DNA of 64,000 nucleotides from Escherichia coli (lineage in GTDB: Bacteria > Pseudomonadota > Gammaproteobacteria > Enterobacterales > Enterobacteriaceae): the NCBI RefSeq assembly GCF_044647545.1, contig NZ_CP172818.1, one strand, 5' to 3'. Within the stretch, counting starts at the first letter, position 1, and every line of letters starts with the position of its first letter. Below the pieces are notes generated by a model. It was not told the DNA's origin and did not search any database. It worked only from the letters and a program-made list of their open reading frames with translations. Below are positions 1 through 62,397 of the stretch, piece after piece. The position numbers were made by a program, and so were the translations under genes.

Positions 1-60
1 TGCGATCTTTTCCTGTGTGGTACGCCGTCTGCGTTTCTCCGGCCCTAAGACATCAATCAT
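1..60 (-). CDS. insC: IS2 transposase OrfA (InsC), N-terminal 20 codons only; partial at window edge
   Basis: Minus-strand ATG at 58..60 reads MIDVLGPEKRRRRTTQEKIA to the window edge. Confidence 0.7.
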   Translation of the reverse strand, partial: MIDVLGPEKRRRRTTQEKIA

Positions 61-151
61 CTGTTCTCCAATGACTAGTCTAAAAACTAGTATTAAGACT
101 ATCACTTATTTAAGTGATATTGGTTGTCTGGAGATTCAGGGGGCCAGTCTA
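1..151 (-). mobile_element. IS2 left end (partial; element continues upstream of window), terminal inverted repeat ending at 151
   Basis: Reverse complement of 61..151 matches the IS2 left end as I recall it (TAGACTGGCCCCCTGAATCTCCAGACAACC...), followed by the insC start. Confidence 0.85.
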
Positions 152-206
152 AACCCCAGAACTTACTTATGCTGATTCCGGTGCGAAAATTGTTAATAAA
201 GGTACT
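152..206 (+). pseudogene. ydbA: 55-bp ydbA autotransporter fragment trapped between IS2 and IS30
   Basis: Reads in frame (…[15 protein letters not shown]) into the ydbA frame that resumes after IS30 once one copy of the CT duplication is removed. Confidence 0.6.
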
Positions 207-1427
207 TGTAGATTCAATTGGTCAACGCAACAGTTATGTGAAAACATGGGGTTGCGGAGGTTTTTTGAATGAGACGAACATTTACAGCAGAGGAAAAAGC
301 CTCTGTTTTTGAACTATGGAAGAACGGAACAGGCTTCAGTGAAATAGCGAATATCCTGGGTTCAAAACCCGGAACGATCTTCACTATGTTAAGGGATACT
401 GGCGGCATAAAACCCCATGAGCGTAAGCGGGCTGTAGCTCACCTGACACTGTCTGAGCGCGAGGAGATACGAGCTGGTTTGTCAGCCAAAATGAGCATTC
501 GTGCGATAGCTACTGCGCTGAATCGCAGTCCTTCGACGATCTCACGTGAAGTTCAGCGTAATCGGGGCAGACGCTATTACAAAGCTGTTGATGCTAATAA
601 CCGAGCCAACAGAATGGCGAAAAGGCCAAAACCGTGCTTACTGGATCAAAATTTACCATTGCGAAAGCTTGTTCTGGAAAAGCTGGAGATGAAATGGTCT
701 CCAGAGCAAATATCAGGATGGTTAAGGCGAACAAAACCACGTCAAAAAACGCTGCGAATATCACCTGAGACAATTTATAAAACGCTGTACTTTCGTAGCC
801 GTGAAGCGCTACACCACCTGAATATACAGCATCTGCGACGGTCGCATAGCCTTCGCCATGGCAGGCGTCATACCCGCAAAGGCGAAAGAGGTACGATTAA
901 CATAGTGAACGGAACACCAATTCACGAACGTTCCCGAAATATCGATAACAGACGCTCTCTAGGGCATTGGGAGGGCGATTTAGTCTCAGGTACAAAAAAC
1001 TCTCATATAGCCACACTTGTAGACCGAAAATCACGTTATACGATCATCCTTAGACTCAGGGGCAAAGATTCTGTCTCAGTAAATCAGGCTCTTACCGACA
1101 AATTCCTGAGTTTACCGTCAGAACTCAGAAAATCACTGACATGGGACAGAGGAATGGAACTGGCCAGACATCTAGAATTTACTGTCAGCACCGGCGTTAA
1201 AGTTTACTTCTGCGATCCTCAGAGTCCTTGGCAGCGGGGAACAAATGAGAACACAAATGGGCTAATTCGGCAGTACTTTCCTAAAAAGACATGTCTTGCC
1301 CAATATACTCAACATGAACTAGATCTGGTTGCTGCTCAGCTAAACAACAGACCGAGAAAGACACTGAAGTTCAAAACACCGAAAGAGATAATTGAAAGGG
1401 GTGTTGCATTGACAGATTGAATCTACA
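207..1427 (+). mobile_element. IS30, complete 1221-bp copy
   Basis: Imperfect 26-bp terminal inverted repeats (TGTAGATTCAATTGGTCAACGCAACA at 207..232, about 23 of 26 matching at 1402..1427), 2-bp CT target duplication at 205..206 and 1428..1429, one long transposase ORF. Confidence 0.9.
269..1420 (+). CDS. insI: IS30 transposase InsI (383 aa, DDE family)
   Basis: 383-aa ORF filling IS30; N-terminal helix-turn-helix and C-terminal DDE region recognised as IS30 transposase. Confidence 0.9.
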   Translation: MRRTFTAEEKASVFELWKNGTGFSEIANILGSKPGTIFTMLRDTGGIKPHERKRAVAHLTLSEREEIRAGLSAKMSIRAIATALNRSPSTISREVQRNRGRRYYKAVDANNRANRMAKRPKPCLLDQNLPLRKLVLEKLEMKWSPEQISGWLRRTKPRQKTLRISPETIYKTLYFRSREALHHLNIQHLRRSHSLRHGRRHTRKGERGTINIVNGTPIHERSRNIDNRRSLGHWEGDLVSGTKNSHIATLVDRKSRYTIILRLRGKDSVSVNQALTDKFLSLPSELRKSLTWDRGMELARHLEFTVSTGVKVYFCDPQSPWQRGTNENTNGLIRQYFPKKTCLAQYTQHELDLVAAQLNNRPRKTLKFKTPKEIIERGVALTD

Positions 1428-4400
1428 CTGTTGAAATTCAGAATTTAGGTTTTGCTTTTGTTACTGGTGAAAATACAACAGGTATAAATAGTGGCACGAT
1501 CTCGTTATTACAAAATGGTAAAGATCCGGCACCGTCTCCCATTGTTTTACTGGCTACTAACGGAGGGAGCGCCACTAATGCAGGTACGATCACAGGTAAA
1601 GTGACGGAACAACATAGCGTATTTAACAAGTATTCAACGGGCACATCGAATTCATTTATTTTTAATAACGATGTCAGTAGCATAACAGGGTTAGTCGCTC
1701 AATCGAATAGCACAATTATCAATACTGACAGCGGCATCATTGATTTGTATGGTCGTGGTAGTGTCGGCATGCTTGCTATAGCAGATTCAACAGCAGAAAA
1801 TCAGGGTAAAATTACACTGGATTCTATGTGGGTAGATGCAAATGACACTACCGCAATGCGAGATATAGCTAGCAACAGCGCCATTGACTTCGGTACAGGT
1901 GTGGGAGTTGGTACTGATAGTTATAGTGGTGCAGGGAAAAATGCAACAGCAATTAACCAATTGGGCGGTGTTATAACTATTTATAACGCCGGCGCAGGTA
2001 TGGCGGCCTATGGCGCCAGCAATACAGTTATTAACCAGGGGACGATTAACCTCGAAAAAAATGGTAATTATGACGATAGTCTGGCAGCAAATACTCTGGT
2101 AGGGATGGCTGTTTATGAGCATGGTACTGCTATCAACGACCAGACGGGTGTTATCAATATCAATGTTGGTACTGGTCAGGCGTTTTATAACGATGGCACA
2201 GGAACAATTGTTAACTATGGTACAATCTGCACTTTCGGCGTGTGCCAATCGGGGAATGAGTACAATAATACAGATGATTTCACCTCACTGATCTATACCG
2301 GTGGCGATACGATTACACGAAGCGGAGAAACTGTAACGCTAAATAAATCTGCTGCTGTGACTGATAAGCTGGCTGGGAATGTTGTTAATAGCGGAACGCT
2401 TTCCGGTGATCAAATTACGGTATCAAGCGGTCTTCTGGAAAATACCAGCGGTGGCATCATCAATAACTTAGTAAAACTTGACAAGGGTGCCGTCATTAAA
2501 AATGCCGGGGTGATGACGAATAACGTCGATGTTAGCGGTGGAATCCTCAATAATGCCGGAGAAATGACTGCGCAAATTACCATGAATGCTGGTGCTGATA
2601 GTTCGTTAGTGAACAACACCGGAACCATCAATAAAATCGTGCAGAACGCGGGGGTATTCAATAATAGTGGCAGTGTAACAGGGCGGATGATGTCGGCTGG
2701 CGGGGTCTTTAATAATCAAACTGACGGGGCGATTATGAGAGGTGCTGCGCTGACAGGTACTGCAGTGGCAAATAACGAAGGAACCTGGAACCTCGGAAGT
2801 AGTAGTGAGGGTAACAACACCGGGATGCTGGAAGTTAATAATAATTCAGCTTTCAATAACCGCGGCGAGTTTATTCTTGATAACGACAAGAATGCTGTGC
2901 ACATCAACCAGTCCGGTACGCTTTATAATACCGGTCACATGAACATCAGTAATTCTTCCCACAACGGAGCCGTTAATATGTGGGGCGGAAATGGTCGTTT
3001 TATCAATGACGGAACGATTGATGTTTCTGCGAAGTCACTGGTAGTCAGCGCTAATAATGCCGGCGATCAGAATGCCTTCTTCTGGAACCAGGATAACGGG
3101 GTCATCAACTTCGATCACGACAGCGCCAGTGCCGTGAAAGTCACCCACAGCAACTTTATTGCCCAGAATGACGGCATCATGAACATCAGCGGCACCGGTG
3201 CTGTGGCTATGGAAGGTGATAAGAACGCGCAGCTGGTTAACAATGGCACCATCAACCTCGGTACCGCAGGCACTACTGACACGGGTATGATCGGTATGCA
3301 ACTCGATGCCAACGCCACGGCGGATGCGGTAATCGAAAACAACGGCACCATCAATATCTTCGCCAATGACTCGTTTGCATTTAGCGTACTGGGTACAGTA
3401 GGTCATGTGGTTAACAACGGCACGGTGGTGATTGCCGATGGGGTTACGGGTTCTGGACTGATCAAGCAGGGCGACAGCATCAATGTTGAAGGTATGAACG
3501 GTAACAACGGTAATAGCAGCGAAGTGCATTATGGCGACTATACGTTGCCGGATGTGCCGAAGCCCAATACGGTTAGTGTAACGTCGGGAAGTGATGAGGC
3601 TGGTGGCAGCATGAACAACCTCAACGGCTATGTCGTCGGTACCAACGTTAACGGCAGCGCCGGGAAGCTGAAGGTTAACAATGCCAGCATGAACGGCGTG
3701 GAGATTAACACGGGCTTTACCGCTGGTACGGCAGACACCACTGTGAGTTTTGATAACGTAGTGGAAGGTAGCAACCTGACCGACGCTGACGCCATCACCT
3801 CAACGTCCGTGGTATGGACTGCCAAAGGCAGCACCGATGCCAGCGGTAACGTTGACGTCACCATGAGCAAAAATGCCTACACCGATGTGGCAACAGATGC
3901 CTCGGTGAATGACATCGCGAAAGCACTGGATGCGGGTTACACCAACAACGAACTGTTTACCAGCCTGAACGTCGGCACGACTGCTGAACTGAACAGTGCT
4001 CTGAAACAGGTCAGCGGTAGCCAGGCGACCACGGTATTCCGCGAAGCGCGCGTGTTAAGCAACCGCTTTAGTATGCTGGCAGATGCCGCGCCGAAAGTGG
4101 GTAACGGTCTGGCGTTCAACGTTGTCGCGAAAGGCGATCCGCGTGCCGAGTTAGGTAATAATACCGAATACGACATGCTGGCATTGCGTAAAACTATCGA
4201 CCTGAGCGAAAGCCAGACGATGAGTCTGGAGTACGGTATCGCTCGTCTCGATGGTGATGGTGCGCAGAAAGCGGGTGATAATGGCGTTACAGGCGGTTAT
4301 AGCCAGTTTTTTGGCCTGAAACATCAGATGTCGTTCGATAACGGCATGAACTGGAATAACGCCTTGCGTTACGACGTTCACAACCTTGACAGCAGCCGCT

Positions 4401-4924
4401 CGATTGCATTTGGCAACACGAACAAAACGGCTGATACCGACGTGAAACAGCAGTACCTGGAGTTCCGCAGCGAAGGGGCGAAGACTTTCGAACCGAGCGA
4501 AGGACTGAAGGTTACGCCATATGCGGGTGTAAAACTGCGTCACACACTGGAAGGTGGCTATCAGGAGCGCAATGCCGGAGACTTTAACCTGAATATGAAC
4601 AGTGGCAGCGAAACGGCGGTGGACAGCATCGTCGGGCTGAAACTGGACTACGCAGGTAAAGACGGCTGGAGCGCTAGCGCTACGCTGGAAGGCGGGCCGA
4701 ACCTGAGCTACGCGAAGAGCCAGCGTACGGCAAGCCTGGCAGGCGCAGGCAGTCAGCACTTTAACGTCGATGACGGTCAGAAGGGCGGCGGCATCAATAG
4801 CCTGACAAGCGTCGGCGTGAAGTACAGCAGCAAAGAAAGTTCGCTGAATCTGGATGCGTACAACTGGAAAGAGGATGGCATCAGCGATAAAGGCGTGATG
4901 CTGAACTTCAAGAAAACGTTCTAA
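1428..4924 (+). pseudogene. ydbA: ydbA C-terminal portion: autotransporter passenger repeats plus beta-barrel translocator; gene disrupted by IS2 and IS30
   Basis: Open frame runs from the IS30 junction with no start of its own; Gly/Asn/Thr-rich repeats and a C-terminal barrel ending in F; annotated ORF 1601..4924 is the internal Met-start part. Confidence 0.8.
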
Positions 4925-4944
4925 TTTTTAGCATGTGATACCTA

Positions 4945-4977
4945 AACCGCAACGCTGATACAGGTTGCGGTTTTTTA
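4945..4977 (+). terminator. Rho-independent terminator downstream of ydbA
   Basis: GC stem AACCGCAAC / GTTGCGGTT followed by a T6 run. Confidence 0.65.
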
Positions 4978-5131
4978 TTGCCGGATGCGGCGCTTGACGC
5001 GTTTTGTTTTGGTGTCTTCCAGGACAATAGAGCAACTCATCCAGTAATCTTGTTTACGCCTTCGCATTATTTAACTCTTTTCGTTTCTATACTGATTTTT
5101 CTGAATTCGTTTTATTACAGGGCAGGGTGCG

Positions 5132-5992
5132 ATGAGCAGCAATACATTTACTCTCGGTACAAAATCCGTTAACCGTCTTGGTTATGGCGCGATGCAACTG
5201 GCAGGTCCTGGGGTTTTTGGCCCCCCAAGAGATCGCCACGTCGCTATAACCGTGCTGCGTGAGGCGCTGGCATTGGGCGTCAATCACATTGATACCAGCG
5301 ACTTTTATGGTCCGCACGTCACCAATCAGATTATCCGCGAAGCGCTTTATCCTTACTCTGACGACCTGACCATTGTTACTAAAATTGGGGCGCGGCGTGG
5401 AGAGGACGCCTCCTGGTTGCCCGCATTTTCTCCGGCAGAGTTGCAAAAAGCGGTGCACGATAATCTACGTAATCTCGGGCTGGACGTACTGGATGTGGTT
5501 AACCTGCGCGTTATGATGGGGGATGGTCATGGCCCAGCGGAAGGATCGATTGAAGCCAGCCTGACCGTGCTGGCAGAGATGCAAGAACAAGGCCTGGTAA
5601 AACATATTGGCCTGAGCAACGTCACACCGACGCAGGTTGCAGAGGCGCGTAAGATTACCGAAATCGTCTGTGTGCAGAACGAATACAACATTGCTCATCG
5701 TGCTGATGACGCAATGATTGATGCTTTGGCTCGTGACGGCATTGCCTACGTGCCGTTCTTTCCGCTCGGGGGCTTTACGCCGCTGCAATCTTCAACGCTT
5801 TCCGATGTTGCTGCGAGCCTGGGTGCAACACCAATGCAGGTAGCGCTGGCGTGGCTGTTACAACGTTCACCGAATATTTTGTTGATTCCTGGAACATCTT
5901 CTGTTGCGCATTTACGGGAGAATATGGCCGCAGAAAAATTGCATCTTTCTGAGGAAGTGTTGTCTACGTTGGATGGTATTTCGCGAGAATAA
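5132..5992 (+). CDS. ydbC: Aldo-keto reductase family oxidoreductase
   Basis: 286-aa ORF with aldo-keto reductase motifs (…HIDTSDFYG…); Shine-Dalgarno-like site upstream. Confidence 0.85.
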   Translation: MSSNTFTLGTKSVNRLGYGAMQLAGPGVFGPPRDRHVAITVLREALALGVNHIDTSDFYGPHVTNQIIREALYPYSDDLTIVTKIGARRGEDASWLPAFSPAELQKAVHDNLRNLGLDVLDVVNLRVMMGDGHGPAEGSIEASLTVLAEMQEQGLVKHIGLSNVTPTQVAEARKITEIVCVQNEYNIAHRADDAMIDALARDGIAYVPFFPLGGFTPLQSSTLSDVAASLGATPMQVALAWLLQRSPNILLIPGTSSVAHLRENMAAEKLHLSEEVLSTLDGISRE

Positions 5993-6055
5993 CGAATATA
6001 CAAAAGGGAAAGATGCATTTCCCTTTTGTTTCTTTTTTAATGGCATGGAGTGCAT

Positions 6056-8362
6056 ATGTTTAAGCCCAGGATTTGCAGCTGGATAGGTTTACTTCCCCTG
6101 TTTATGCTGAGTCTTCCAGTACAGGCGGACCTTCGATGTGTTGCAAATGCAGTTGATATTGAACCATTTTTTTCTGCGGCTACCGCTGAAGATAAACAAC
6201 AAGTTGAACAAGCTATCAACAGTAGCGTGAATCTTGTCCCCTTCGGTTTATCTGCATCGGACTGGAAAGTGCATCGTGGCGATTTAGTGGTAGACGGTAA
6301 TATAGAGAGTAATCAAAAATTGATTGTTCTTGGCAATTTGACAGTCAAAGGTAATATTTCCACTTTCTCTCTTTCTAATCCATGGGTTATTCTCGGTAAC
6401 GTGACGGCAACGAATATAGTTACGGATTCACCACTGTTAATTACCGGTTCGATAAATGCAAGTGGACTGGTATTTATCGACTCATATTACGATAATCCGT
6501 CTACGATTAAGGGGAGTATTAATGCGCGTGGGATATTTATCAATGACATAATTGCACCTGTTGTTGCGTCTTCGACAAATAGTGAATTCATGGTCCGTGC
6601 GAGTGACAAAAATGACACTGAAAATGTCAAAAAAGCGCTGATGATAATAAATCCTGATGCATATTATTGGGATCTAATAAATGATGAAGATGCTCTGAAA
6701 GAAATTTTTAAGCGAAGCAATATTCGCATGGCAGGGAATGTCTGTAATCTGATGAAAAAAGAAGCGCTGTTTCGCCCTAAGCCTTCTCCTGAGTTAGTGC
6801 AGGAATTGCAAATGCTGGATGAAGGCAACGTTGCTGCATTTGAAGGACGAGATATTGCGACATTTGATCTTGCCATAATGCGAACTCTCCCAAGGCTTAA
6901 AGGAATTTCAGCTAACCTACGCAAACAACTTATTAATAGCAATGATGGACAAACGATTGAAAGTATGGCGAGATATATGCCTGACAATGAGATTCTGGAG
7001 TTGACCGATCAGCAATTGGGTTACCAGCCTGTTGTTCTGGGGTTGCTCGACCGTGAACCGCTCTCTGTCGAAATAATGACGCGAATGAGTCATCTACCTG
7101 ATGGTGTCGGTCCGTTGAATCTTGCGCTACGTGAAAATCTCCCTCTGGATATCGTCATGACTCTGGCGAAAAGAGATTGGGATATGATCATTCAGGAGCT
7201 TTATAAAGATGCGTGGTTATTGCCCGAATCCATTATTGATGGCTATATCCGCAGTGATGATTCCTCTATTCGTCAGGTCGGTGCTGGAGGACAACTCACC
7301 TACAATCAGGCAATGCAGTTGGCGAACGATTCATCAAACGATGTTGTCACAAGCTTAGCGTCAAAGCTGGCAGAGATGAAACACCATGGTCAATTGTTGC
7401 GGATGACGCCACAAGAGAGTGACAAAATAGCAGTATATTTATACCAAAAATTCGAGAATGACGATGATCTAATAGGTGCGTTATTTTTAGCGTTGCCAGA
7501 TAACTTACAGTTTAATTTTGTTAAAAGGATGGAGAAAAAATCCCCTGCCTACTTTTGCTGTCGGGATATGCAGGTAATTCACTCTGACGCTGCTTTACAA
7601 CGGTTATTGACACGTTTCAACGATCCTGAGGGGTGGAGTAATCTGGCGAAAAATCAGTATCTGAGTACGGCGATGAAACAAAAAATTTGGCATCGCGCTT
7701 TATCGCATCGAAAAAATAATCCGAAAGCAGATTCTGCAGCATATGAAACCAGCGCTGATATGATTTTGTCGGAGCTTATCAGCTACGGTGAAGTTGATGA
7801 CCAGATGCTATTAAATGCCGCCTCTCTGATACGTTCGGAAGGCTGGGACTTTTTAGAGAGTGCATTAGTTAGTTGGGATAATTTACCCGCTGTTGTCCTC
7901 AAGGAATTACAGCAAAATATGCCACGCAATGATATTTGGGCGAAGTTTTTTCTGAGGCAGGAAAACAGCTCTCGTGCGCAGGTTAACGAAGCGTTACGTG
8001 TTTATTATGCACTAGACCCCGATGCGTTAGCACAACTGGATGTACTGGCAAAACAACCGGATCGTATATGGTGGAGTTCGCTGGCGAAAAGCAATCTTAC
8101 ATTTTTCAAGTTCGGTGCACTTAACAATCGCCATACACCGTCTGCGGCACTGGCGGCAGAAATTGATCCCGAGTGGTGGATTGTGGCGATGAATAATCCC
8201 CGTTTTCCAGTTGATGTATTAAAGGCGAGGCTGAAACGTGATCCTTTGCTGGCGTTAGAGCTTGTTAAACCTGAACTGGATTTAGTCCGCCAGCTGGCGC
8301 TTAACGGTAAGACGCGCGCAATACGGGAACAAGCGATGAGAAAACTTGATGAGTTGTATTGA
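6056..8362 (+). CDS. ydbD: Secreted protein YdbD of unknown function (signal peptide, beta-helix-like repeats, C-terminal helical repeats)
   Basis: 768-aa ORF from the ATG at 6056 (track ORF begins at an upstream GTG, 6050); N-terminal signal peptide …LSLPVQA. Confidence 0.8.
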   Translation: MFKPRICSWIGLLPLFMLSLPVQADLRCVANAVDIEPFFSAATAEDKQQVEQAINSSVNLVPFGLSASDWKVHRGDLVVDGNIESNQKLIVLGNLTVKGNISTFSLSNPWVILGNVTATNIVTDSPLLITGSINASGLVFIDSYYDNPSTIKGSINARGIFINDIIAPVVASSTNSEFMVRASDKNDTENVKKALMIINPDAYYWDLINDEDALKEIFKRSNIRMAGNVCNLMKKEALFRPKPSPELVQELQMLDEGNVAAFEGRDIATFDLAIMRTLPRLKGISANLRKQLINSNDGQTIESMARYMPDNEILELTDQQLGYQPVVLGLLDREPLSVEIMTRMSHLPDGVGPLNLALRENLPLDIVMTLAKRDWDMIIQELYKDAWLLPESIIDGYIRSDDSSIRQVGAGGQLTYNQAMQLANDSSNDVVTSLASKLAEMKHHGQLLRMTPQESDKIAVYLYQKFENDDDLIGALFLALPDNLQFNFVKRMEKKSPAYFCCRDMQVIHSDAALQRLLTRFNDPEGWSNLAKNQYLSTAMKQKIWHRALSHRKNNPKADSAAYETSADMILSELISYGEVDDQMLLNAASLIRSEGWDFLESALVSWDNLPAVVLKELQQNMPRNDIWAKFFLRQENSSRAQVNEALRVYYALDPDALAQLDVLAKQPDRIWWSSLAKSNLTFFKFGALNNRHTPSAALAAEIDPEWWIVAMNNPRFPVDVLKARLKRDPLLALELVKPELDLVRQLALNGKTRAIREQAMRKLDELY

Positions 8363-8532
8363 ATAACAGCGTAATATTTTTTAACCCTTTGATTAATTGG
8401 GGATAATCATTCCTGACAGTGAGTCCCCAATACCTTGATATATTCTGAATTTTTAATGAAGCGGCGTGTTGCGATATCTCCATCAGGGGAATTGATGCAC
8501 CATAGCGCAAACCGAATTATCAAGGATTGATA

Positions 8533-9138
8533 ATGACGCTCTACCAGATAAAACCGCTCTTTCAGTCGCTGTTAAGGCCGACGATGTTTTGGCTTTATAA
8601 GCACCACGTTACAGCGAATCACATCACTCTTGCTGCACTGGCGCTTTCTCTTCTTACCGGATTGCTGTTGATGTTGGTGGCACAACCCATCCTCTTTTTG
8701 CTATTGCCTATCGTGCTTTTTATCCGTATGGCGCTCAATGCGCTGGATGGCATGTTGGCGCGTGAGTGCAATCAGCAAACACGTCTGGGGGAGATTTTGA
8801 ATGAAACTGGCGATGTTATTTCCGATATTGCGCTCTATTTACCGTTTTTATTTTTACCGGAAAGTAACCCATCACTCGTAATACTCATGTTATTTTGCAC
8901 CATATTGACTGAGTTTTGTGGTTTACTCGCGCAGACGATTAACGGTATTCGCAGTTTTGCCGGTCCATTTGGCAAAAGCGATCGCGCGTTAATATTTGGT
9001 CTGTGGGGGCTAGCCGTTGCCATTTATCCACAGTGGATGCAATGGAATAATCTTTTATGGGGCATTGCTTCAATTCTGCTTATCTGGACTGCGATTAATC
9101 GTTGTCGGAGTGTGCTCCTGATGAGTGCTGAAAGATAA
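8533..9138 (+). CDS. ynbA: CDP-alcohol phosphatidyltransferase family membrane protein
   Basis: 201-aa hydrophobic ORF from the ATG at 8533 carrying a D-G-x2-A-R…G…D-type motif; stop overlaps the ynbB start (TAATG). Confidence 0.8.
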   Translation: MTLYQIKPLFQSLLRPTMFWLYKHHVTANHITLAALALSLLTGLLLMLVAQPILFLLLPIVLFIRMALNALDGMLARECNQQTRLGEILNETGDVISDIALYLPFLFLPESNPSLVILMLFCTILTEFCGLLAQTINGIRSFAGPFGKSDRALIFGLWGLAVAIYPQWMQWNNLLWGIASILLIWTAINRCRSVLLMSAER

Positions 9139-10034
9139 TGATGGAAAAATCTCTGGCAACACTTTTCGCGTTGTTAATTTTAGCAACGCTGATAAACCGT
9201 TTTCGGGTATGGCGGTTACCGGAGAGAAAAGGGGATGAAGTTACATTACGTATTCGTACCTGGTGGGGCATCGTCATTTGTTTTTCACTGGTGATTTCAG
9301 GTCCACGCTGGATGACGTTGACGTTTTTTGCGCTGATAAGTTTTCTGGCATTGAAAGAATATTGTACGCTTATATCCGTACATTTTCCGCGTTGGTTATA
9401 TTGGGGTATTCCTCTTAACTATTTGCTTATCGGTCATAATTGCTTTGAGCTGTTTCTGTTATTTATACCTTTGGCTGGGTTTCTGATATTAGCCACCTGG
9501 CAAGTTTTTGTGGGTGACCCCTCCGGTTTTCTGCATACAGTGAGCGCCATTTTTTGGGGCTGGATAATGACCGTTTTCGCCTTGAGTCATGCCGCCTGGT
9601 TATTAATGTTGCCAACCATAAATATCCAGGGCGAGGCGTTACTGGTGTTATTTCTTTTGGCATTAACCGAGTCAAACGATATTGCACAGTATTTATGGGG
9701 AAAATCCTGCGGCAGAAGAAAAGTGGTCCCCAAAGTCAGCCCGGGAAAAACGCTGGAAGGTCTGGTGGGGGGCGTAATCACCACCATGATTGCGTCACTA
9801 ATTATTGGACCGTTGCTGACACCGCTAAATACATTACAGGCATTATTAGCGGGTTTGTTAATTGGTATTAGTGGTTTTTGCGGCGATGTAGTGATGTCAG
9901 CCATCAAACGAGATATTGGTGTTAAAGATAGTGGAAAACTATTACCAGGACATGGCGGACTCCTTGACAGGATTGACTCATTAATTTTCACCGCTCCGGT
10001 ATTTTTTTATTTTATTCGCTACTGCTGTTACTGA
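9138..10034 (+). CDS. ynbB: CDP-diglyceride synthetase (CdsA) paralogue, membrane protein
   Basis: 298-aa hydrophobic ORF with a CdsA-like C-terminal signature (…KRDIGVKDSGKLLPGHGGLLDRIDS…). Confidence 0.8.
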   Translation: MMEKSLATLFALLILATLINRFRVWRLPERKGDEVTLRIRTWWGIVICFSLVISGPRWMTLTFFALISFLALKEYCTLISVHFPRWLYWGIPLNYLLIGHNCFELFLLFIPLAGFLILATWQVFVGDPSGFLHTVSAIFWGWIMTVFALSHAAWLLMLPTINIQGEALLVLFLLALTESNDIAQYLWGKSCGRRKVVPKVSPGKTLEGLVGGVITTMIASLIIGPLLTPLNTLQALLAGLLIGISGFCGDVVMSAIKRDIGVKDSGKLLPGHGGLLDRIDSLIFTAPVFFYFIRYCCY

Positions 10035-10049
10035 AGGAAAATAGAGAAA

Positions 10050-13113
<3,064 letters not shown>

Positions 13114-13122
13114 GCGGATTGA

Positions 13123-13152
13123 GATGTGGACTGAATATCTACAGTCCACATC
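13123..13152. terminator. Bidirectional hairpin between convergent ynbD and azoR
   Basis: 11-bp inverted repeat GATGTGGACTG / CAGTCCACATC in the 53-bp convergent gap. Confidence 0.5.
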
Positions 13153-13166
13153 AAAATAGTGTCCGG

Positions 13167-13781
<615 letters not shown>

Positions 13782-13972
13782 TTATAGATGTTTGAATGGG
13801 CGATGCCCCGTTGCTTGTTGACACTTTATTCACAATCCTGCCACAGAGATAGCGCAATAAATCGAAGCCTATGTTCGAATTTATTGAACAACGCATAGAA
13901 AGCCGCGATGTGGTACTCTATATCTATCATTTAAAAGAAAATTAATCAGGCAGCCTACTGCCCACTAACGTT

Positions 13973-16900
13973 ATGACAGAACAACAAAAATTGACCTTTA
14001 CGGCCTTGCAGCAGCGGCTGGATTCGCTGATGCTGCGTGACAGACTGCGTTTTTCCCGCCGTCTGCACGGCGTGAAGAAGGTTAAAAATCCTGATGCACA
14101 ACAGGCCATTTTCCAGGAGATGGCGAAAGAGATTGACCAGGCGGCAGGGAAAGTCCTGCTGCGTGAAGCGGCACGTCCGGAAATTACTTATCCTGACAAT
14201 TTGCCGGTTAGTCAGAAAAAGCAGGACATTCTCGAAGCGATTCGTGATCACCAGGTGGTGATCGTCGCCGGGGAAACCGGTTCCGGTAAAACGACTCAGC
14301 TACCGAAAATCTGTATGGAGCTGGGGCGCGGTATTAAAGGGCTGATCGGTCATACCCAACCGCGTCGCCTGGCGGCACGAACGGTGGCGAACCGTATTGC
14401 GGAAGAGCTGAAAACGGAGCCGGGCGGTTGCATCGGTTACAAAGTGCGTTTCAGCGATCACGTAAGTGATAACACGATGGTCAAGCTGATGACCGACGGT
14501 ATCCTGCTGGCGGAGATCCAGCAAGACCGCCTGCTGATGCAGTACGACACTATCATTATTGACGAAGCGCACGAACGCAGCCTGAATATCGATTTTCTGC
14601 TCGGCTATTTGAAAGAGTTGCTGCCGCGGCGTCCTGACCTAAAAATCATTATCACTTCCGCGACTATCGACCCGGAACGCTTTTCGCGCCACTTTAATAA
14701 TGCGCCGATTATCGAAGTCTCCGGTCGTACCTATCCGGTGGAGGTGCGTTATCGCCCGATTGTTGAAGAAGCTGATGACACCGAGCGCGACCAGTTGCAG
14801 GCGATTTTTGATGCCGTAGACGAACTGAGCCAGGAAAGCCCTGGCGACATTCTGATTTTTATGAGCGGCGAGCGAGAAATTCGCGATACCGCCGATGCGC
14901 TGAACAAGCTGAACTTACGCCATACGGAAATCTTGCCGCTTTATGCGCGGCTTTCGAACAGCGAACAGAACCGCGTCTTCCAGTCGCACAGTGGACGGCG
15001 CATTGTGCTGGCGACCAACGTCGCGGAAACCTCGCTGACCGTACCGGGTATTAAATACGTTATCGACCCCGGTACAGCGCGTATCAGCCGCTACAGCTAT
15101 CGCACCAAAGTGCAGCGTTTGCCGATTGAACCCATTTCGCAGGCGTCTGCCAATCAGCGTAAAGGCCGCTGTGGTCGTGTGTCCGAAGGGATCTGTATTC
15201 GTCTCTATTCCGAAGACGATTTCCTTTCGCGCCCGGAATTTACCGATCCGGAGATTCTGCGTACCAACCTGGCCTCGGTTATTTTGCAGATGACTGCGCT
15301 GGGGCTGGGCGATATCGCTGCGTTCCCGTTTGTTGAAGCACCGGATAAACGCAATATCCAGGATGGCGTGCGTCTGCTCGAAGAACTGGGCGCGATCACC
15401 ACGGATGAACAGGCCAGCGCCTATAAACTGACGCCGCTCGGTCGCCAGCTCTCGCAGTTGCCTGTCGACCCACGTCTGGCGCGTATGGTGCTGGAAGCGC
15501 AAAAACATGGCTGCGTGCGTGAGGCGATGATTATCACGTCCGCGCTCTCCATTCAGGATCCGCGCGAGCGTCCGATGGATAAACAGCAGGCATCGGACGA
15601 AAAACATCGCCGCTTCCACGACAAAGAATCCGACTTCCTCGCGTTTGTAAATCTGTGGAATTATCTTGGCGAGCAGCAAAAGGCGCTTTCTTCCAACGCC
15701 TTCCGTCGCCTGTGTCGTACCGATTATCTCAACTATCTGCGCGTGCGCGAATGGCAGGATATCTACACCCAGTTGCGCCAGGTGGTGAAAGAACTTGGCA
15801 TTCCGGTTAACAGCGAACCGGCGGAGTATCGTGAAATTCACATTGCGTTGCTGACGGGTTTACTTTCCCATATCGGCATGAAAGATGCCGATAAACAAGA
15901 ATATACCGGCGCACGTAACGCGCGTTTCTCCATTTTCCCCGGTTCCGGCTTATTTAAAAAGCCGCCGAAATGGGTAATGGTGGCGGAACTGGTAGAAACC
16001 AGCCGCCTGTGGGGGCGCATTGCTGCGCGTATCGACCCGGAATGGGTAGAACCCGTTGCTCAGCATTTGATTAAACGCACCTACAGCGAACCGCACTGGG
16101 AACGGGCGCAGGGCGCGGTGATGGCAACGGAAAAAGTCACTGTTTATGGTTTGCCGATTGTTGCTGCGCGTAAGGTCAACTACAGCCAGATCGATCCGGC
16201 GTTATGTCGTGAACTCTTTATTCGCCACGCTCTGGTGGAAGGTGACTGGCAGACGCGTCACGCATTCTTCCGTGAAAACCTGAAACTGCGGGCCGAAGTG
16301 GAAGAGCTGGAACACAAATCACGTCGCCGCGATATTCTGGTTGATGACGAAACGCTGTTTGAGTTCTACGACCAGCGCATCAGCCACGATGTAATCTCCG
16401 CTCGTCACTTCGATAGCTGGTGGAAAAAAGTCAGCCGCGAAACGCCTGATTTGCTCAACTTTGAAAAGAGCATGTTGATCAAAGAAGGGGCGGAAAAAAT
16501 CAGCAAGCTGGATTATCCGAACTTCTGGCATCAGGGCAATCTCAAGCTGCGTTTGAGCTATCAGTTTGAGCCCGGCGCGGATGCTGACGGTGTGACTGTG
16601 CATATCCCGCTGCCGCTGCTTAATCAGGTAGAAGAGAGCGGGTTTGAATGGCAAATCCCCGGCCTGCGCCGCGAACTGGTGATTGCTCTGATTAAATCGT
16701 TGCCGAAACCGGTACGCCGTAATTTTGTGCCTGCACCAAACTACGCAGAAGCGTTTTTAGGCCGCGTCACACCGCTGGAGTTACCGTTGCTCGACAGCCT
16801 TGAGCGCGAGTTACGGCGGATGACTGGCGTCACCGTTGACCGCGAAGACTGGCACTGGGATCAGGTGCCCGATCACCTGAAAATCACCTTCCGCGTGGTG

Positions 16901-33346: not shown

Positions 33347-34015
33347 ATGCGTACCACATCAATTGCGAAAGTTGCAGCTTTATGCGGCTTGTTGGCTCTG
33401 TCTGGTTGTGCCTCTAAAATCACCCAGCCAGATAAATATTCTGGTTTTTTAAACAATTACTCTGATTTAAAAGAAACAAATTCTGCAACGGGTAAACCTG
33501 TTTTACGTTGGGTAGACCCGAGTTTTGATCAAAGCAAATATGACAGCATCGTCTGGAACCCAATCACTTATTATCCGGTACCGAAACCTTCAACCCAGGT
33601 AGGGCAGAAAGTTCTGGATAAAATTTTGAACTATACCAACACCGAAATGAAAGAAGCGATAGCGCAGCGTAAACCACTGGTTACCACCGCTGGGCCGCGT
33701 AGTCTGATTTTCCGTGGGGCCATTACCGGTGTAGATACCAGCAAAGAAGGGCTGCAATTCTATGAAGTGGTTCCTGTTGCATTAGTGGTTGCGGGGACGC
33801 AAATGGCTACAGGCCACCGTACCATGGATACTCGCTTGTATTTTGAAGGTGAGCTGATTGATGCAGCGACTAATAAACCGGTTATCAAAGTCGTTCGTCA
33901 GGGCGAAGGTAAAGACCTGAATAACGAAAGTACGCCAATGGCTTTCGAAAATATTAAACAAGTTATTGATGACATGGCGACCGATGCCACCATGTTTGAC
34001 GTTAACAAAAAGTAG
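33347..34015 (+). CDS. ydcL: Lipoprotein YdcL
   Basis: 222-aa ORF with lipoprotein signal and lipobox (…LALSGC). Confidence 0.8.
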   Translation: MRTTSIAKVAALCGLLALSGCASKITQPDKYSGFLNNYSDLKETNSATGKPVLRWVDPSFDQSKYDSIVWNPITYYPVPKPSTQVGQKVLDKILNYTNTEMKEAIAQRKPLVTTAGPRSLIFRGAITGVDTSKEGLQFYEVVPVALVVAGTQMATGHRTMDTRLYFEGELIDAATNKPVIKVVRQGEGKDLNNESTPMAFENIKQVIDDMATDATMFDVNKK

Positions 34016-34023
34016 TTCCAGAC

Positions 34024-34048
34024 GCGCCATCGTTAGATGGCGCTTTTT
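34024..34048 (+). terminator. Rho-independent terminator after ydcL
   Basis: Stem GCGCCATC / GATGGCGC followed by T5. Confidence 0.65.
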
Positions 34049-34269
34049 ATTAACTGTAAAGGTTTCTCTTCTTTTTTCTTCAAATGCCAAAACCCTTATA
34101 ATCTCTCAATACTGTCGCTCCAAACCTACTCTTCTTTTCGCGTCCCAGTTATAGTTATTAACAATCTCTTCCCATCCATTCAACACACTCAAACGCAATA
34201 CATTAAGTATTTCCCTCATCAAAAATCTGATCGTATGTGACAAAGACCGTGAACACACAGGAAAACACA

Positions 34270-35450
34270 TGCCTTCCACGCCGATACGTTTCTTCACAGA
34301 CCAAAGTCATTTGCCTGTGAAACACTACAGCATTTAAATCCATTAGCCCGTGTCAAAGAGCGTGAAATGGCGCTTCCGGCGCATGTCGTTTCGTTTCAAT
34401 CTCTCTGGCACGTCAGAAGAGAATCATGAGCCGTAATAAATACATCCCTTACGGGAAAATGCTTCCTCTGTTGAGTGAAAAACGCCACGAAACCAATGCT
34501 AAAGATCGCCCTCACAGCCATTCAACACACTGAAAGACCTTGAGCGCTTAAAAAACTTCTCCAGAAGCCTGCTTTTCCCCGATCAAAAAGCGGGGACAGA
34601 AGATGCATTCGCTACCCGCAGGGCGTTAAGCTCGACAGGAAAACAGCCGTATTTTTCGCCGAAACTTGGCTGGATGCGCTACCGGAATAGCCGTCAGGTC
34701 ACGGGTGTGTGAAAAATGTCACTGTCAGCCAGTCCTGCGTAAGGTACATCAGTATCAGACTGAAAATGAAGTATCAACTCCGTTCACCCTTCAGCATCAA
34801 TGGTCGGCTGGAGCGCGGGCTAAACTCGCCACGCTGTCAGAGCAAGCTTTGACCTGAAACAGTTTTCAGAAAAACCAGAAGAAGCTGGCGAGACTTCAGC
34901 GACAGTTAAGCCGCAAGGTCAAATTCAGCAATAACTGGCAGAAGCAGAAACGCAAAATACAGCGACTGCATCCTGTACGCAAATATCCGCAGGGACTACC
35001 TTCACAAAGTCACAACGACCGTCAGCAAAAACCACGCAATGATAGTCATTGAGGATTTGAAGGTCAGCAACATGTCAAAGTCAGCAGCGGGTACGGTCAG
35101 CCAGCCGGGGCGCAATGTCCGGGCAAAATCAGGTTTAAACCGTTCGATACTGGATCAGGGCTGGTATGAAATGCGCCGCCAGCTTGAGTACAAGCACCTG
35201 GCGTGGCGGTCAGGTGCTTGCTGCCGCCAGCGTACACAAGCCAGCGTTGCGCGTGCTGTGGTCATACAGCGAAAGAAAATCGCCTGTCACAAAGTAAATT
35301 CAGATGCCAGCATGTGGATATACAGCGAACGCCGATGAAATGCCTCGTAACATTTTAGCGGCGGGGCACGCCGTTCTTGCCTGTGGAGAGATGGTGCATC
35401 AGCCGCTCGTTGAAGCAGGAACCCCCCGAAATGATTTAGCGACAGCCTGA
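34270..35450 (+). pseudogene. insQ: Decayed IS200/IS605-family (IS609-like) tnpB / insQ-type gene
   Basis: TnpB-like peptide segments (…KLGWMRYRNSRQVTGV…, …KKLARLQRQLSRKVKFSNNWQKQKRKIQRLH…, …MIVIEDLKVSNMSK…) lie in different frames with in-frame stops; no ORF over 99 aa on either strand. Confidence 0.65.
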
Positions 35451-35487
35451 ACGTAGCAGGGATCCACGTCCTTCAGGGCGTGAGGAT

Positions 35488-36663
35488 TCAATATCGGTTT
35501 CTGTCAGCGATTAAATTCAACACCACGTAACAAACGCCTCCGGCAATTAATCCCCAAAACGCAGAACCAATCCCGGCCAGCGTCAATCCACTTGCCGTTA
35601 CCAGAAATGCCACCACCGCCGCGTCGCGCTCACGCTCATTATGCAGCGCCTGATACAAACTGCCGCCAATGGTACTCAACAGCGCCAGACCTGCCAGCAT
35701 CTGGATCCAACTTACGGGCAGGGCAGCCATCATCCCGGTAATGGCACTACCAAACAGACCTGCGAGCAAATAGAAAATGCCTGCAACGGCAGCTGCCAGC
35801 CAACGTTGATCTTTATCCGGATGCGCTTCCGGGCTTTGGCAAATAGCCGCGGTGATTGCCGCAATACCGACGGAATAAACGCCGAAAGGGGAAAAAACCA
35901 GTGCCAGCAATCCAGTAAATACAATTAATGGCGAAACAGGAGCCGAATATCCGGCTGCTTTCATTGCTGCGATACCCGGTGCGTTTTGCGATGCCATCGT
36001 CACCAGAAAAAGGGGGAGTGCAACGCTCAGGCTGTGAGCAAACGAAAAATCAGGGCTAATATAAGTGGGGAGAACGGGTTTAAAGACAACATCAGTTGTG
36101 ACAACGTCACCTTGCGCGATAACGATCACGCCCCCAATAATCATCGCGGCAATTACCGCATAGCGCGGCGCAACGGCCCTGGTTGCCAGCCATACCAGCA
36201 ACATACTGCCACACAACGTAAATTGACCATCCAGGCTCGCAAACGCCTGTAAACCAAAGCGTAATAAAATCCCGGCAAGCATTGCCGCCGCAAGCGAGTG
36301 CGGAATAATGCGCATCAGACGAGCAAAGAGTCCCGTTATGCCGCAGAGGACTATTAACGCGTTGGTGACAATAAAAACGCCGATGGTTTCGTTAAGTGTT
36401 AGTCCCTGCAATCCGGTGACCAACAAAGCCGCGCCAGGCGTTGACCATGCGGTGAGAACAGGTACGCGATACCATAATGTCAGAGCCAGCGTACTGACGC
36501 CCATTGCCAGCCCCAGCGCCGTCATCCAGCCAGAGATTTGTGCAGTGGTGGCTCCGGCGACAATCGCTGCTTGCCAGATTATTGCCGCTGAACTGGCGTA
36601 GCCAATTAATACCGCCAGAAACCCCGCCAGTAGCGTGGGCGGAGGAATAGAAAACAGACGCAT
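35488..36663 (-). CDS. ydcO: BenE-family (benzoate-type) inner-membrane transporter
   Basis: 391 aa from MRLFSIPPPTLLAGF…; highly hydrophobic multi-pass protein. Confidence 0.8.
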   Translation of the reverse strand: MRLFSIPPPTLLAGFLAVLIGYASSAAIIWQAAIVAGATTAQISGWMTALGLAMGVSTLALTLWYRVPVLTAWSTPGAALLVTGLQGLTLNETIGVFIVTNALIVLCGITGLFARLMRIIPHSLAAAMLAGILLRFGLQAFASLDGQFTLCGSMLLVWLATRAVAPRYAVIAAMIIGGVIVIAQGDVVTTDVVFKPVLPTYISPDFSFAHSLSVALPLFLVTMASQNAPGIAAMKAAGYSAPVSPLIVFTGLLALVFSPFGVYSVGIAAITAAICQSPEAHPDKDQRWLAAAVAGIFYLLAGLFGSAITGMMAALPVSWIQMLAGLALLSTIGGSLYQALHNERERDAAVVAFLVTASGLTLAGIGSAFWGLIAGGVCYVVLNLIADRNRY

Positions 36664-57736: not shown

Positions 57737-58474
57737 AAGGATAAATGGCGTTCTCTGTATTTATTCGCAATTATCTGTAGGACAAATATGGAGAGCTTGA
57801 TGAGTCAGAGCTAAAACAGCAATTGATTAATAAACATGTTGATTTATTCAAGAAAATGGATGTATTTTAAATATTGATTCTTAATATAACCTAATCAATA
57901 GATTATCACGTGAGAGCTGCACATTATTGGAGGGGCAGGGGAAAACACCATTTTGGGAACAATGCATCAGGTACTCTTACCACTGAAGCAAGATCATCCG
58001 GGCACCAGGTGGTGGTGCAGTGCTTTGGAAATGGTCCCCTCGGGGGAGTTGTCATTATTTTCTATGCTATTTGCTTATTATATTCATCAGGTGAATTTAA
58101 TAAATTCCTAATTTGAAATATCCACTATTAAGCCAGTGTTTAACGACGTTAAGATGGCAATGTGCAGATCATGTTATCAGGGTGGGGCGGTAGCGTATAT
58201 TCCTTATACAAACCATCATTCATTTCAATGATTGTTATTGAATTATTTATTGTTGTGAATAAAAAGACATTATGAATATTGGTTTGACTTTGCATATCAG
58301 GTTTTTTATTACTCGCTGTAATGTACGAGCCTGTCGTGAATAACGTCGAGAACCCATCCGTTGCGTTTGTGATTATTTTGTTGACTAAACAGACACCCGT
58401 TTCTCTGAAGTAAAATCCCAGACTAAATCATCACATAACCATGACATTTTTCTGATATTCCCCGGTAACGCCAG

Positions 58475-60109
58475 ATGTCGACTCGCTTATCCACCCTCAG
58501 CCATACCAGTGAAGGCCACCGCGTGTCGGTCCACTACGGCTATGACGATAAAGGCCGCCTGACCGGCGAACGCCAGACGGTGGAGAACCCGGAGACGGGG
58601 GAACTGCTGTGGCACCATGAGACCGGACATGCGTACAACGAACAGGGGCTGGCAAACCGCGTCACGCCGGACAGTCTGCCGCCGGTGGAGTGGCTGACCT
58701 ACGGCAGCGGCTATCTTGCGGGCATGAAGCTGGGCGGGACGCCGCTGCTGGAGTTCACGCGCGACCGCCTGCACCGTGAGACGGTGCGCAGCTTCGGCAG
58801 CATGGCAGGCAGTAATGCCGCATATAAACTGACCAGCACATACACCCCCGCAGGCCAGTTACAGAGCCAGCACCTGAACAGCCTGGTGTATGACCGTGAC
58901 TACGGGTGGAATGACAACGGCGACCTGGTGCGCATCAGCGGCCCGCGACAGACGCGGGAATACGGCTACAGCGCCACGGGCAGGCTGGAGAGTGTGCGCA
59001 CCCTCGCACCAGACCTGGACATCCGCATCCCGTATGCCACGGACCCGGCGGGCAACCGGCTGCCGGACCCGGAGCTGCACCCGGACAGTACACTCACAGT
59101 GTGGCCGGATAACCGCATCGCGGAGGATGCGCACTATGTCTACCGCCACGATGAATACGGCAGGCTGACGGAGAAGACGGACCGCATCCCGGCGGGTGTG
59201 ATACGGACGGACGACGAGCGGACCCACCACTACCACTACGACAGCCAGCACCGCCTGGTGTTCTACACGCGGATACAGCATGGCGAGCCACTGGTCGAGA
59301 GCCGCTACCTCTACGACCCGCTGGGACGGCGAATGGCAAAACGGGTCTGGCGGCGGGAGCGTGACCTGACGGGGTGGATGTCGCTGTCGCGTAAACCGGA
59401 GGTGACGTGGTATGGCTGGGACGGAGACAGGCTGACGACGGTGCAGACTGACACCACACGTATCCAGACGGTATACGAGCCGGGAAGCTTCACGCCGCTC
59501 ATCCGGGTCGAGACAGAGAACGGCGAGCGGGAAAAAGCGCAGCGGCGCAGCCTGGCAGAGACGCTCCAGCAGGAAGGGAGTGAGAACGGCCACGGCGTGG
59601 TGTTCCCGGCTGAACTGGTGCGGCTGCTGGACAGGCTGGAGGAAGAAATCCGGGCAGACCGCGTGAGCAGTGAAAGCCGGGCGTGGCTTGCGCAGTGCGG
59701 GCTGACGGTGGAGCAACTGGCCAGACAGGTGGAGCCGGAATACACACCGGCGCGAAAAGTTCATTTTTACCACTGCGACCACCGGGGCCTGCCGCTGGCG
59801 CTCATCAGCGAAGACGGCAATACGGCGTGGCGCGGGGAGTATGATGAATGGGGCAACCAGCTTAATGAGGAGAACCCGCATCACCTGCACCAGCCGTACC
59901 GTCTGCCAGGGCAGCAGTATGATAAGGGAGTCGGGCTGGTACTTATAACCGTCACCGGTACTACGATCCGTTGCAGGGGCGGTATATCACCCGGGACCCG
60001 ATTGGGTTGAGAGGTGGATATGGATATGTATCAGTATCCGTTGAATCCCATACAAGTGATAGACCCAATGGGGTTAGATGCGATTGAGAATATCATAATA
60101 TCAGGCTAA
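58475..60109 (+). pseudogene. rhsE: rhsE remnant: C-terminal part of an Rhs core with a frameshifted tail
   Basis: GC-rich ORF 58475..60010 with YD-repeat content (…[12 protein letters not shown]…[12 protein letters not shown]…); the conserved end (…[17 protein letters not shown]… and DPMGL) continues in the two other frames; no N-terminal half upstream. Confidence 0.8.
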
Positions 60110-62290: not shown

Positions 62291-62397
62291 ATAATTCGCA
62301 TTTTATGTTTAAAAATTGAGATATTCCTCATTACCTGAAGCTGTTTTTTATTGCTTATACATGATCAAATACTCCTTACATAATTAAGGAGAACAAA

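Follow-up and report, generated by a model that had tools for sequence, protein, structure and literature searches.

Two insertion sequences lie only 55 bp apart inside one large autotransporter gene at the beginning of the window, i.e. of the whole stretch of 64,000 nucleotides analysed here, which comes from an Escherichia coli contig. The locus raises the questions of how this gene came to be interrupted twice at such a short distance, whether its 3' part has remained open by recent origin or by continued expression, and how the block came to stand in this chromosomal background.

Identity and reconstruction of the interrupted gene

The whole region is the ydbA locus of E. coli K-12, where a gene for a BigA-like type Va autotransporter adhesin of roughly 2020 amino acids is now a pseudogene (Table 1). 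In the RefSeq record of MG1655, ydbA (b4492) is given in three fragments, split by IS2D (insC2/insD2) and IS30C (insI2) at exactly the positions seen in the window, and positions 1-4939 are base-identical to this locus, with the same fragments, IS boundaries and orientations. The K-12 arrangement ydbA::IS2D::IS30C has long been annotated at single-base resolution, and there is nothing new in its structure. The unique ydbA part of the island between the two elements measures 50 bp (157-206) and corresponds to the MG1655 'gene fragment 2 of ydbA' (1469246-1469295), and the 3' part corresponds to 'gene fragment 3' (1470519-1474013). The original prediction had named the gene as ydbA and the elements as IS2 and IS30, in agreement with the MG1655 annotation, and its placing of the IS2 end at 151 and of IS30 at 207-1427, with a gap of 55 bp between them, is correct to the base.

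Table 1. Positions of the features of the interrupted ydbA locus in the window
Feature	Position	Strand	Evidence or remarks
IS2, terminal 151 bp (IS2D of K-12)	1-151	-	100% identity to MG1655 IS2D; orfA-proximal end
Target duplication of IS2 (5 bp), right copy, AACCC	152-156		Comparison with the empty site of PigCaeca_2
ydbA island between IS2 and IS30 (55 bp)	152-206	+	Comparison with the empty site of PigCaeca_2
Target duplication of IS30, CT	left 205-206, right 1428-1429	+	Single CT in the empty site of PigCaeca_2
Complete IS30 (IS30C), 1221 bp	207-1427	+	Identical to MG1655 IS30C
insI, IS30 transposase, 383 aa	269-1420	+	NF033563 (transpos_IS30), 276 bits, cutoff 80
Outward -35 TTGACA in the right inverted repeat of IS30	1409-1414	+	Sequence; 13 bp from the IS end
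ydbA fragment 3	1430-4924	+	1164 codons plus stop; residues 857-2020 of intact YdbA
BigA beta-sandwich domain of the passenger	3626-3877	+	PF25783, E=3.7e-26; residues 1589-1672 of the intact protein
Autotransporter beta-domain (outer-membrane barrel)	4238-4834	+	PF03797, E=1.4e-19, obtained with the C-terminal 374 aa; no PF03797 match in a scan of the full-length protein
Switch interval	4916-4939		Left side 100% MG1655; right side 100% ST648-type (MS6198), a lineage without ydbA

An intact allele is carried by an E. coli of the phylogroup A type (PigCaeca_2, WP_201792210.1, 2020 aa), where ydbA has no interruption and its annotation is that of a functional autotransporter. Its empty site reads ...GACAAG AACCC CAGAAC...AAAGGTA CT GTTGAAATT..., and alignment to it places the junctions as had been described from the window and confirms that excision restores a continuous ydbA frame, with codons over 153-206 and then onward from 1430. 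The removal in silico of both elements, together with one copy of each duplication, gives an open reading frame of 6063 nt (2020 aa) without an internal stop, and this is possible because both insertions were clean, cut-and-paste-type events without an associated deletion. The reconstructed gene differs from the PigCaeca_2 allele at two of the 6063 nucleotides (S111L and K2017N). In fragment 3 there is a single difference from PigCaeca_2, and none from ECCHD184 and PCP06173. The number of passenger repeats varies by strain, the 5' fragment of ydbA measuring 2526 nt in K-12, as against 3450 nt for ATCC 8739 and 3744 nt for G3/10.

The last bases of IS2 (...GGCCAGTCTA) reach position 151, which is the end of IS2D in MG1655 (1469240), and insC/insD, the transposase genes, are encoded on the minus strand. 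Upstream of the window lie the left AACCC and the remaining part of the element. They are present in the comparison locus L001, where the element is 1331 bp long, has AACCC on both sides and carries an annotated IS2 transposase with a programmed frameshift. IS30 is bounded by imperfect inverted repeats of 26 bp (207-232 and 1402-1427, 23 of 26 positions matching); this copy is identical to IS30C and IS30D of MG1655 and differs by 3 nt from IS30A. InsI contains the Pfam domains HTH_38 and rve, i.e. it is a single transposase with an N-terminal HTH and a DDE core, as in the IS30 family. A target duplication of 2 bp has been described for IS30 (PMC9333248); the CT duplicated here is single in the empty site and the frame is continuous after excision, which bears out the earlier view of the IS30 insertion as a clean single event.

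The gene became a pseudogene by two independent transpositions: IS30 (IS30C) entered it with a 2-bp CT duplication, and IS2 (IS2D) came to lie 50 unique bp upstream of IS30, in the opposite orientation and with a 5-bp AACCC duplication. A K-12-type allele with IS2 only, which would order the two insertions, was not found among 5,426 complete genomes. Twenty apparent IS2-only matches were rejected, as their IS2 lies at other positions in or beside ydbA and not at the K-12 position.

Domain composition of YdbA

The domains recognised in YdbA are BigA_N, BigA_beta and the autotransporter beta-domain. The whole of 1428-4924 had been called the barrel portion in the original prediction, which has to be amended: PF03797 matches only at about 4238-4834, so that fragment 3 encodes passenger up to about 4237 and the barrel occupies only its last ~200 codons. 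Of the features of a classical (type Va) autotransporter, ydbA has the C-terminal barrel, and in K-12 it has no N-terminal Sec signal peptide on the barrel polypeptide. A signal-like N-terminus (MQRKTLLSACIALALSGQGWA..., judged by eye) is present only in the reconstructed and intact ydbA, and in K-12 the two IS elements separate it from the barrel. The three domains are common to YdbA and Salmonella BigA (NF033178), whose profile aligns with residues 1218-2020; the score of 1122.5 bits is nevertheless far under the family cutoff of 3400. Judging by these profiles, YdbA is a BigA-like relative and not BigA itself.

Expression of the 3' fragment

The region 1427-4924 is open over 1165 codons, and the predicted lack of codon-level decay in the 3' part holds throughout. 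Two explanations had been offered for it, a recent inactivation or an upkeep of the fragment by expression from an outward promoter borne by the IS element. Recent inactivation is the right one. With just two of 6063 nucleotides substituted since the intact allele, fewer than 0.1 disrupting mutations would be expected, and an open 3' frame is expected without any selection. By these counts, the intact 3' fragment reflects very recent events and not selection on an expressed product.

The other explanation, that the 3' fragment is still expressed from an outward or hybrid promoter of IS30, or, if the UGA of insI is read through, as a fusion of InsI and YdbA, and is kept by selection, is very improbable. 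It can draw on a perfect outward -35 hexamer, TTGACA, which is known to form fusion promoters: at the right end of IS30 this hexamer is given as the -35 of Pjunc, or fusion promoter, in PMC9333248 and PMC9330008 (Dalrymple 1987, as cited there). It can also draw on the position of the insI stop codon, 7 bp from the IS end; as there is no terminator-like site nearby, insI transcripts must run into ydbA. In addition, this TGA (1418-1420) shares its frame with fragment 3 and is the only stop between insI and fragment 3, and ydbA transcripts were found in K-12 by RT-qPCR, the fragment being unspecified (PMC5811629). However, Pjunc takes its -10, TAGATT, from an abutting left inverted repeat, whereas the ydbA flank offers only TGAAAT, TTGAAA or GAAATT at 16-18 nt after TTGACA, all of which fail the -10 requirements of the promoter scan; the outward -35 is probably not joined by a functional -10, the second part of an IS-generated fusion promoter. 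No consensus promoter or terminator beyond chance was found in 1-2000, including the IS30/ydbA junction, and no promoter comparable to Pjunc appears to be formed there. The first in-frame start of fragment 3 is GTG at 1601, with a Shine-Dalgarno match of 3/6, and none of its in-frame starts has a better one; nor was a signal-peptide-like N-terminus found at the in-frame starts in 1430-2400. Because a signal peptide is not recognisable at any candidate N-terminus, the barrel could not reach the outer membrane, and fragment 3 is probably unable to yield a functional exported barrel. The frame match between insI and ydbA has a 1-in-3 chance of arising, and the same fragment is truncated or deleted in other strains.

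Recent inactivation, which accounts for the open frame, leaves room for low-level transcription into 1430-4924, whose source could be read-through from insI or a weak hybrid promoter, TTGACA-17-TGAAAT. An InsI-YdbA fusion protein formed by UGA read-through, for which the coinciding frames might allow, is more speculative. Published evidence for the expression of fragment 3 consists of just unspecific mentions of ydbA in RT-qPCR and ChIP-chip work.

Mosaic structure of the window

In comparison with the ydbA locus of MG1655, the block is without differences and only the background differs, since downstream of 4939 the window belongs to a ydbA-less, ST648-like lineage. Segments 4916-34052 and 35492-58491 are 100% and 99.996% identical, respectively, to MS6198, in which paaY abuts pdxI with no ydbA between them; against MG1655, 4916-58491 is about 97% identical, with no SNP-free kilobase. 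That the block equals MG1655 while the rest equals a ydbA-less lineage had not been seen in the original prediction. No match to 1-14000 above 98.0% was found among complete genomes, and the examined contigs encoding the pdxI variant of the window have only ydbA-less contexts or a ydbA allele just 87% identical. There are other K-12-structured segments, for which no natural match was found above 93.2% (33900-35650) or above 96.5% (58300-62400). BHUCD02, which is 114 bp longer than MG1655 (4,641,766 vs 4,641,652 bp), has the same pattern, with zero differences from MG1655 across the ydbA block and SNPs that start immediately outside it.

We infer from these sequence patterns that the mosaic is an artefact of assembly: most likely, the ydbA block is MG1655 reference carried into the templated assembly of an isolate that is ST648-like and has no ydbA by nature. 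A fill-in from the reference everywhere was rejected, given that neither the IS609-like nor the rhsE-yncI segment is identical to MG1655, from which both diverge; these may rather be a consensus built from mis-mapped paralogous reads.

On a further reading, which is on balance unlikely, the mosaic is real: recombination, be it natural or brought about in the laboratory through conjugation or transduction from K-12, would have placed the ydbA::IS2::IS30 block of that strain in an ST648-like recipient. In favour of this, the sequence that flanks the block is of high quality and has 0-1 mismatches to MS6198 over 52 kb, neither the IS609-like nor the rhs segment is a simple copy of MG1655, and donor SNPs right up to a large heterology might in principle be removed when heteroduplex arms undergo mismatch repair. 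Such an event would, however, need a crossover inside the 24 bp of 4916-4939, at the very edge of homology, and would have to leave 4939 bp without any difference from MG1655; moreover, the combination occurs in none of the 5,426 complete genomes, nor in the contigs examined for the pdxI variant of the window, the pattern is repeated in BHUCD02, a record near MG1655 in length, and the other K-12-shaped segments are without natural counterpart.

Distribution of the insertions and choice of the IS30 target

In the 5,426 complete genomes, the ydbA site carries both elements in 364 cases and IS30 only in 13, and is empty in 850. The gene gathers insertion sequences elsewhere as well: ECCHD184 has IS2 at another ydbA position, 2 HS-C carries IS1 together with a remnant of IS2, and PK8277 has an IS3-family element, IS30 and IS1.

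The 55-bp spacing may need no special mechanism, as further insertions in an already dead gene would be neutral, and the IS30 site in ydbA also seems to resemble a preferred IS30 target. A competing explanation, only slightly on the doubtful side, is that the spacing results from targeted insertion, CT being a hot spot of IS30 that was hit independently in different lineages, and/or IS2 being drawn to an IS end. IS30 lies at the same CT and in the same orientation in 13 non-K-12 genomes, and all six of these that were sampled have G, where K-12 has A, at both of the nearest markers, nt 755 of IS30 and flank position -267. Both -267 alleles are found on empty-site chromosomes too (G in 238 genomes), and the K-12 flanks differ from those of the empty PigCaeca_2 site at 0 of 1450 positions upstream and 1 of 3495 downstream. 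The same pattern would nevertheless result if IS30 had inserted once in an ancestor and both a recombination within 267 bp and a conversion of nt 755 had come afterwards, and downstream of the element recombination is clear in ATCC 8739 (27 SNPs from +184). As to the target itself, the use of hot spots by IS30 is already known, and they are described as nearly palindromic (PMC9333248); TTAATAAAGGTACT, the half-site on the left of the ydbA target, is similar to the sites in IS911 at which IS30A and IS30D lie, TTAAAAAAGGCTAC, but the ydbA site is not palindromic. For IS2 there is no evidence of a choice of IS ends, and the K-12 IS2 site is confined to K-12-type genomes.

Taken together, the flank and IS markers are suggestive of independent insertion as against common descent, and are not decisive. 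It is tentatively proposed, with rather more doubt than confidence, that IS30 has a natural chromosomal hot spot at the CT in ydbA, and that at least two lineages (K-12, and the group of ATCC 8739 and G3/10) received the element there independently, each time in the same orientation. If this is true, ydbA is a recurrent sink for IS elements, and its loss is tolerated or favoured in commensal phylogroup A strains.

Significance and comparison with other IS clusters

The most coherent account of the locus, and very probably the correct one, is that ydbA of K-12 became a pseudogene by two recent, clean IS hits and that the block in the window is MG1655 sequence in a reference-templated, ST648-like assembly. 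The biological weight of the locus is little, as it illustrates in textbook fashion how IS elements turn a K-12 gene into a pseudogene. Chimeric MG1655-templated records exist in public collections, the window apparently comes from one of them, and whatever one concluded on the organism from 1-4939 would be mistaken. The ydbA locus provides a small and clean data set on how IS30 chooses its targets and on how a large adhesin gene is lost repeatedly across E. coli through IS elements.

Similar situations are known from the nested IS clusters of K-12, in which IS30A lies inside IS911A and IS30D lies between IS911B and IS600. In these clusters, as in ydbA, IS30 is found in or near another IS element, in dead DNA and at a similar A-rich half-site; the difference is that the elements of the K-12 IS911 clusters are nested in one another, whereas IS2 and IS30 of ydbA stand adjacent within a host pseudogene.

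Structure of the interrupted ydbA locus

The first 4939 nucleotides of the window are 100% identical to E. coli K-12 MG1655, in whose RefSeq annotation ydbA (b4492), a gene of a BigA-like autotransporter, is a pseudogene of three fragments, in the order fragment 1, IS2D (minus strand), a 50-bp fragment 2, IS30C (plus strand) and fragment 3. The same pieces, IS2 and IS30 lying 55 bp apart in ydbA, had been named in the original prediction, and all of its coordinates were borne out by reading positions 1-1700 and by alignment with the uninterrupted ydbA of strain PigCaeca_2. The interrupted locus is already known in full detail.

The empty site of PigCaeca_2 reads GACAAG-AACCC-CAGAAC...AAAGGTA-CT-GTTGAAATT; the left AACCC copy precedes the opposite IS2 end upstream of the window, as seen in NZ_CM183444.1 (BHUCD02). 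When both elements were excised in silico from the K-12-type locus, along with a single copy of each duplication, the result was an ORF of 6063 nt (2020 aa) with no internal stops, differing from PigCaeca_2 ydbA by 2 nt. The codons of the island span 153-206 and the ydbA frame resumes at 1430, confirming that island and post-IS30 sequence are continuous. The duplications, the empty site and the 2-nt difference also uphold the view that the insertions were recent and clean.

Features of the window discussed in the text
Feature	Position	Strand	Remarks
IS2, terminal part	ends at 151		ends with ...GGCCAGTCTA; read directly from 1-1700
IS2 5-bp duplication, right copy	152-156		AACCC; by comparison with the empty site of PigCaeca_2
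CT duplication of IS30	205-206 and 1428-1429		
IS30	207-1427	+	1221 bp; inverted repeats match at 23/26
Outward -35	1409-1414	+	TTGACA; IS30 right end
ydbA fragment 3	1430-4924		MG1655 1470519-1474013
IS609-like segment	34053-35491		1439 bp; at the K-12 IS609 position; empty in MS6198
rhsE-ydcD-yncO-yncI-like segment	~58492-62253		missing from MS6198

Mosaic structure of the window

Past position 4939 the identity with MG1655 falls to ~97%, with 11-99 differences in each kilobase, the first non-K-12 SNP being at 4940, in the ydbA-pdxI intergenic region (4925-5131). Compared with the ST648-type genome MS6198, the window is 100% identical over 4916-34052 and 99.996% identical over 35492-58491. 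MS6198 and its relatives lack ydbA, so that paaY directly adjoins pdxI, and the ydbA allele of related genomes that do carry the gene is only 87% identical. The switch interval, 4916-4939 (24 bp), is the start of homology between both genome types. Differences among MG1655, BHUCD02 and the window are clustered in 4925-5131, which includes a REP-like GCCGGATGCGGCG motif.

Two other segments are K-12-shaped. The IS609-like one is only ~90% identical to MG1655 IS609 and contains no intact insQ/tnpB ORF (the longest ORF is 99 aa); across 5,426 genomes, none of its matches exceeds 93.2%. The rhsE-ydcD-yncI segment shows 0 differences from MG1655 over 58500-59750 and, over 59750-62000, dense substitutions together with about 80 single-base indels; its best natural match is 96.5%, and it represents either a consensus of mis-mapped reads or an unsampled decayed allele.

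The ydbA block might have been acquired by a true recombinant or introduced during assembly. No complete genome matched positions 1-14000 above 98.0%. A parallel is BHUCD02, a RefSeq "complete" chromosome of 4,641,766 bp (MG1655, 4,641,652 bp), which has 0 differences from MG1655 over the whole ydbA block and SNPs directly outside; judging from its sequence, it is likely another reference-guided assembly, and the window shares this signature. The most economical reading is that an ST648-like isolate was probably assembled on an MG1655 template, with the ydbA::IS2::IS30 block as reference carry-over; a true recombinant carrying this block is possible, albeit less likely. The block is thus probably more informative on the assembly than on the organism.

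Distribution and origin of the insertions

Among 5,426 complete E. coli genomes the full IS2 and IS30 arrangement was found in 364, some of which may be likely reference-guided records similar to BHUCD02, and the site was empty in 850. IS30 alone, at the identical dinucleotide and in the identical orientation, occurred in 13 genomes, including ATCC 8739, G3/10, LH13-b, PK8277, B-3008, LD39-1 and PCP06173, and the K-12 IS2 site without IS30 in none. Twenty apparent IS2-only matches were rejected, as IS2 was at different positions within or beside ydbA.

At the two markers nearest the IS30 insertion, nucleotide 755 of IS30 and flank position -267, all six sampled IS30-only alleles have G, whereas K-12 has A. 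Both -267 alleles are present on empty-site chromosomes (G in 238 genomes), and the K-12 flanks agree with the empty PigCaeca_2 allele. K-12 IS30C is identical in sequence to IS30D, which in MG1655 is placed between the IS911B site and IS600. IS30A (1542-2762 of its MG1655 locus, L006) and IS30D (1460-2680 of L007) both adjoin the same IS911-copy site with the flank ...TTAAAAAAGGCTAC, to which the left half-site of the ydbA target, TTAATAAAGGTACT, is similar. The markers, the K-12 flanks, the identity of IS30C and IS30D and the likeness of the half-sites suggest that IS30 may have inserted independently at a preferred ydbA target, which fits its known use of hot spots (PMC9333248). A single gain followed by recombination is also possible, and the downstream allele of ATCC 8739 has clearly recombined, with 27 SNPs from 184 bp past IS30.

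Other strains carry pile-ups in ydbA: PK8277 has an upstream IS3-family element and an IS30 truncated by an IS1 whose deletion extends through ynbC, and 2 HS-C has an IS2 remnant and IS1. Such repeated pile-ups make ydbA a recurrent IS sink, as would be predicted if insertions accumulate neutrally in a gene that is dispensable or dead.

The undecayed 3' part

The intact 3' frame had been explained by recent inactivation or by expression from an IS-borne outward promoter. K-12 differs from the intact allele by 2 substitutions in 6 kb, and far less than one frame-breaking change would be expected in 3.5 kb, so the open frame (1427-4924, 1165 codons) is uninformative on selection. An outward -35 at the right end of IS30 is documented (PMC9333248, PMC9330008). 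The hexamers 16, 17 and 18 nt past TTGACA are TTGAAA, TGAAAT and GAAATT, and a promoter scan gave no promoter at the IS30/ydbA junction. The earliest in-frame start of fragment 3 is GTG at 1601, and none of the in-frame starts in its first 1 kb has a Shine-Dalgarno match above 3/6 or a signal-peptide-like N-terminus; these results, with the negative scan, give the promoter proposal no support. In type Va secretion a barrel without export cannot enter the outer membrane, and the barrel of fragment 3 would not be insertable. Expression of fragment 3 is, on this sequence evidence, a weak alternative.

The insI stop is 7 bp before the IS30 end and no terminator was detected after insI, so insI transcripts must continue into ydbA. 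The two are in one frame with a single TGA between them (1418-1432, …LTD*IYTVEIQ…), and UGA read-through, if it occurs, would give an InsI-YdbA fusion; the common frame is probably a coincidence, with a prior of one in three. RNA of K-12 ydbA, fragment unspecified, has been detected (PMC5811629).

Domain structure and relation to BigA

The autotransporter beta-domain is confined to the last ~200 residues (4238-4834); therefore most of 1430-4924 is passenger, and the term "barrel portion" applied to 1428-4924 in the original prediction was too broad. The passenger contains tandem repeats of roughly 100 aa, with strain-dependent copy number. The 5' fragment measures 2526 nt in K-12, 3156 nt in LD39-1, 3450 nt in ATCC 8739 and 3744 nt in G3/10. 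The intact YdbA protein carries BigA_N and BigA_beta domains, but its alignment with the BigA adhesin profile scores 1122 bits, far under the 3400-bit cutoff of that profile.
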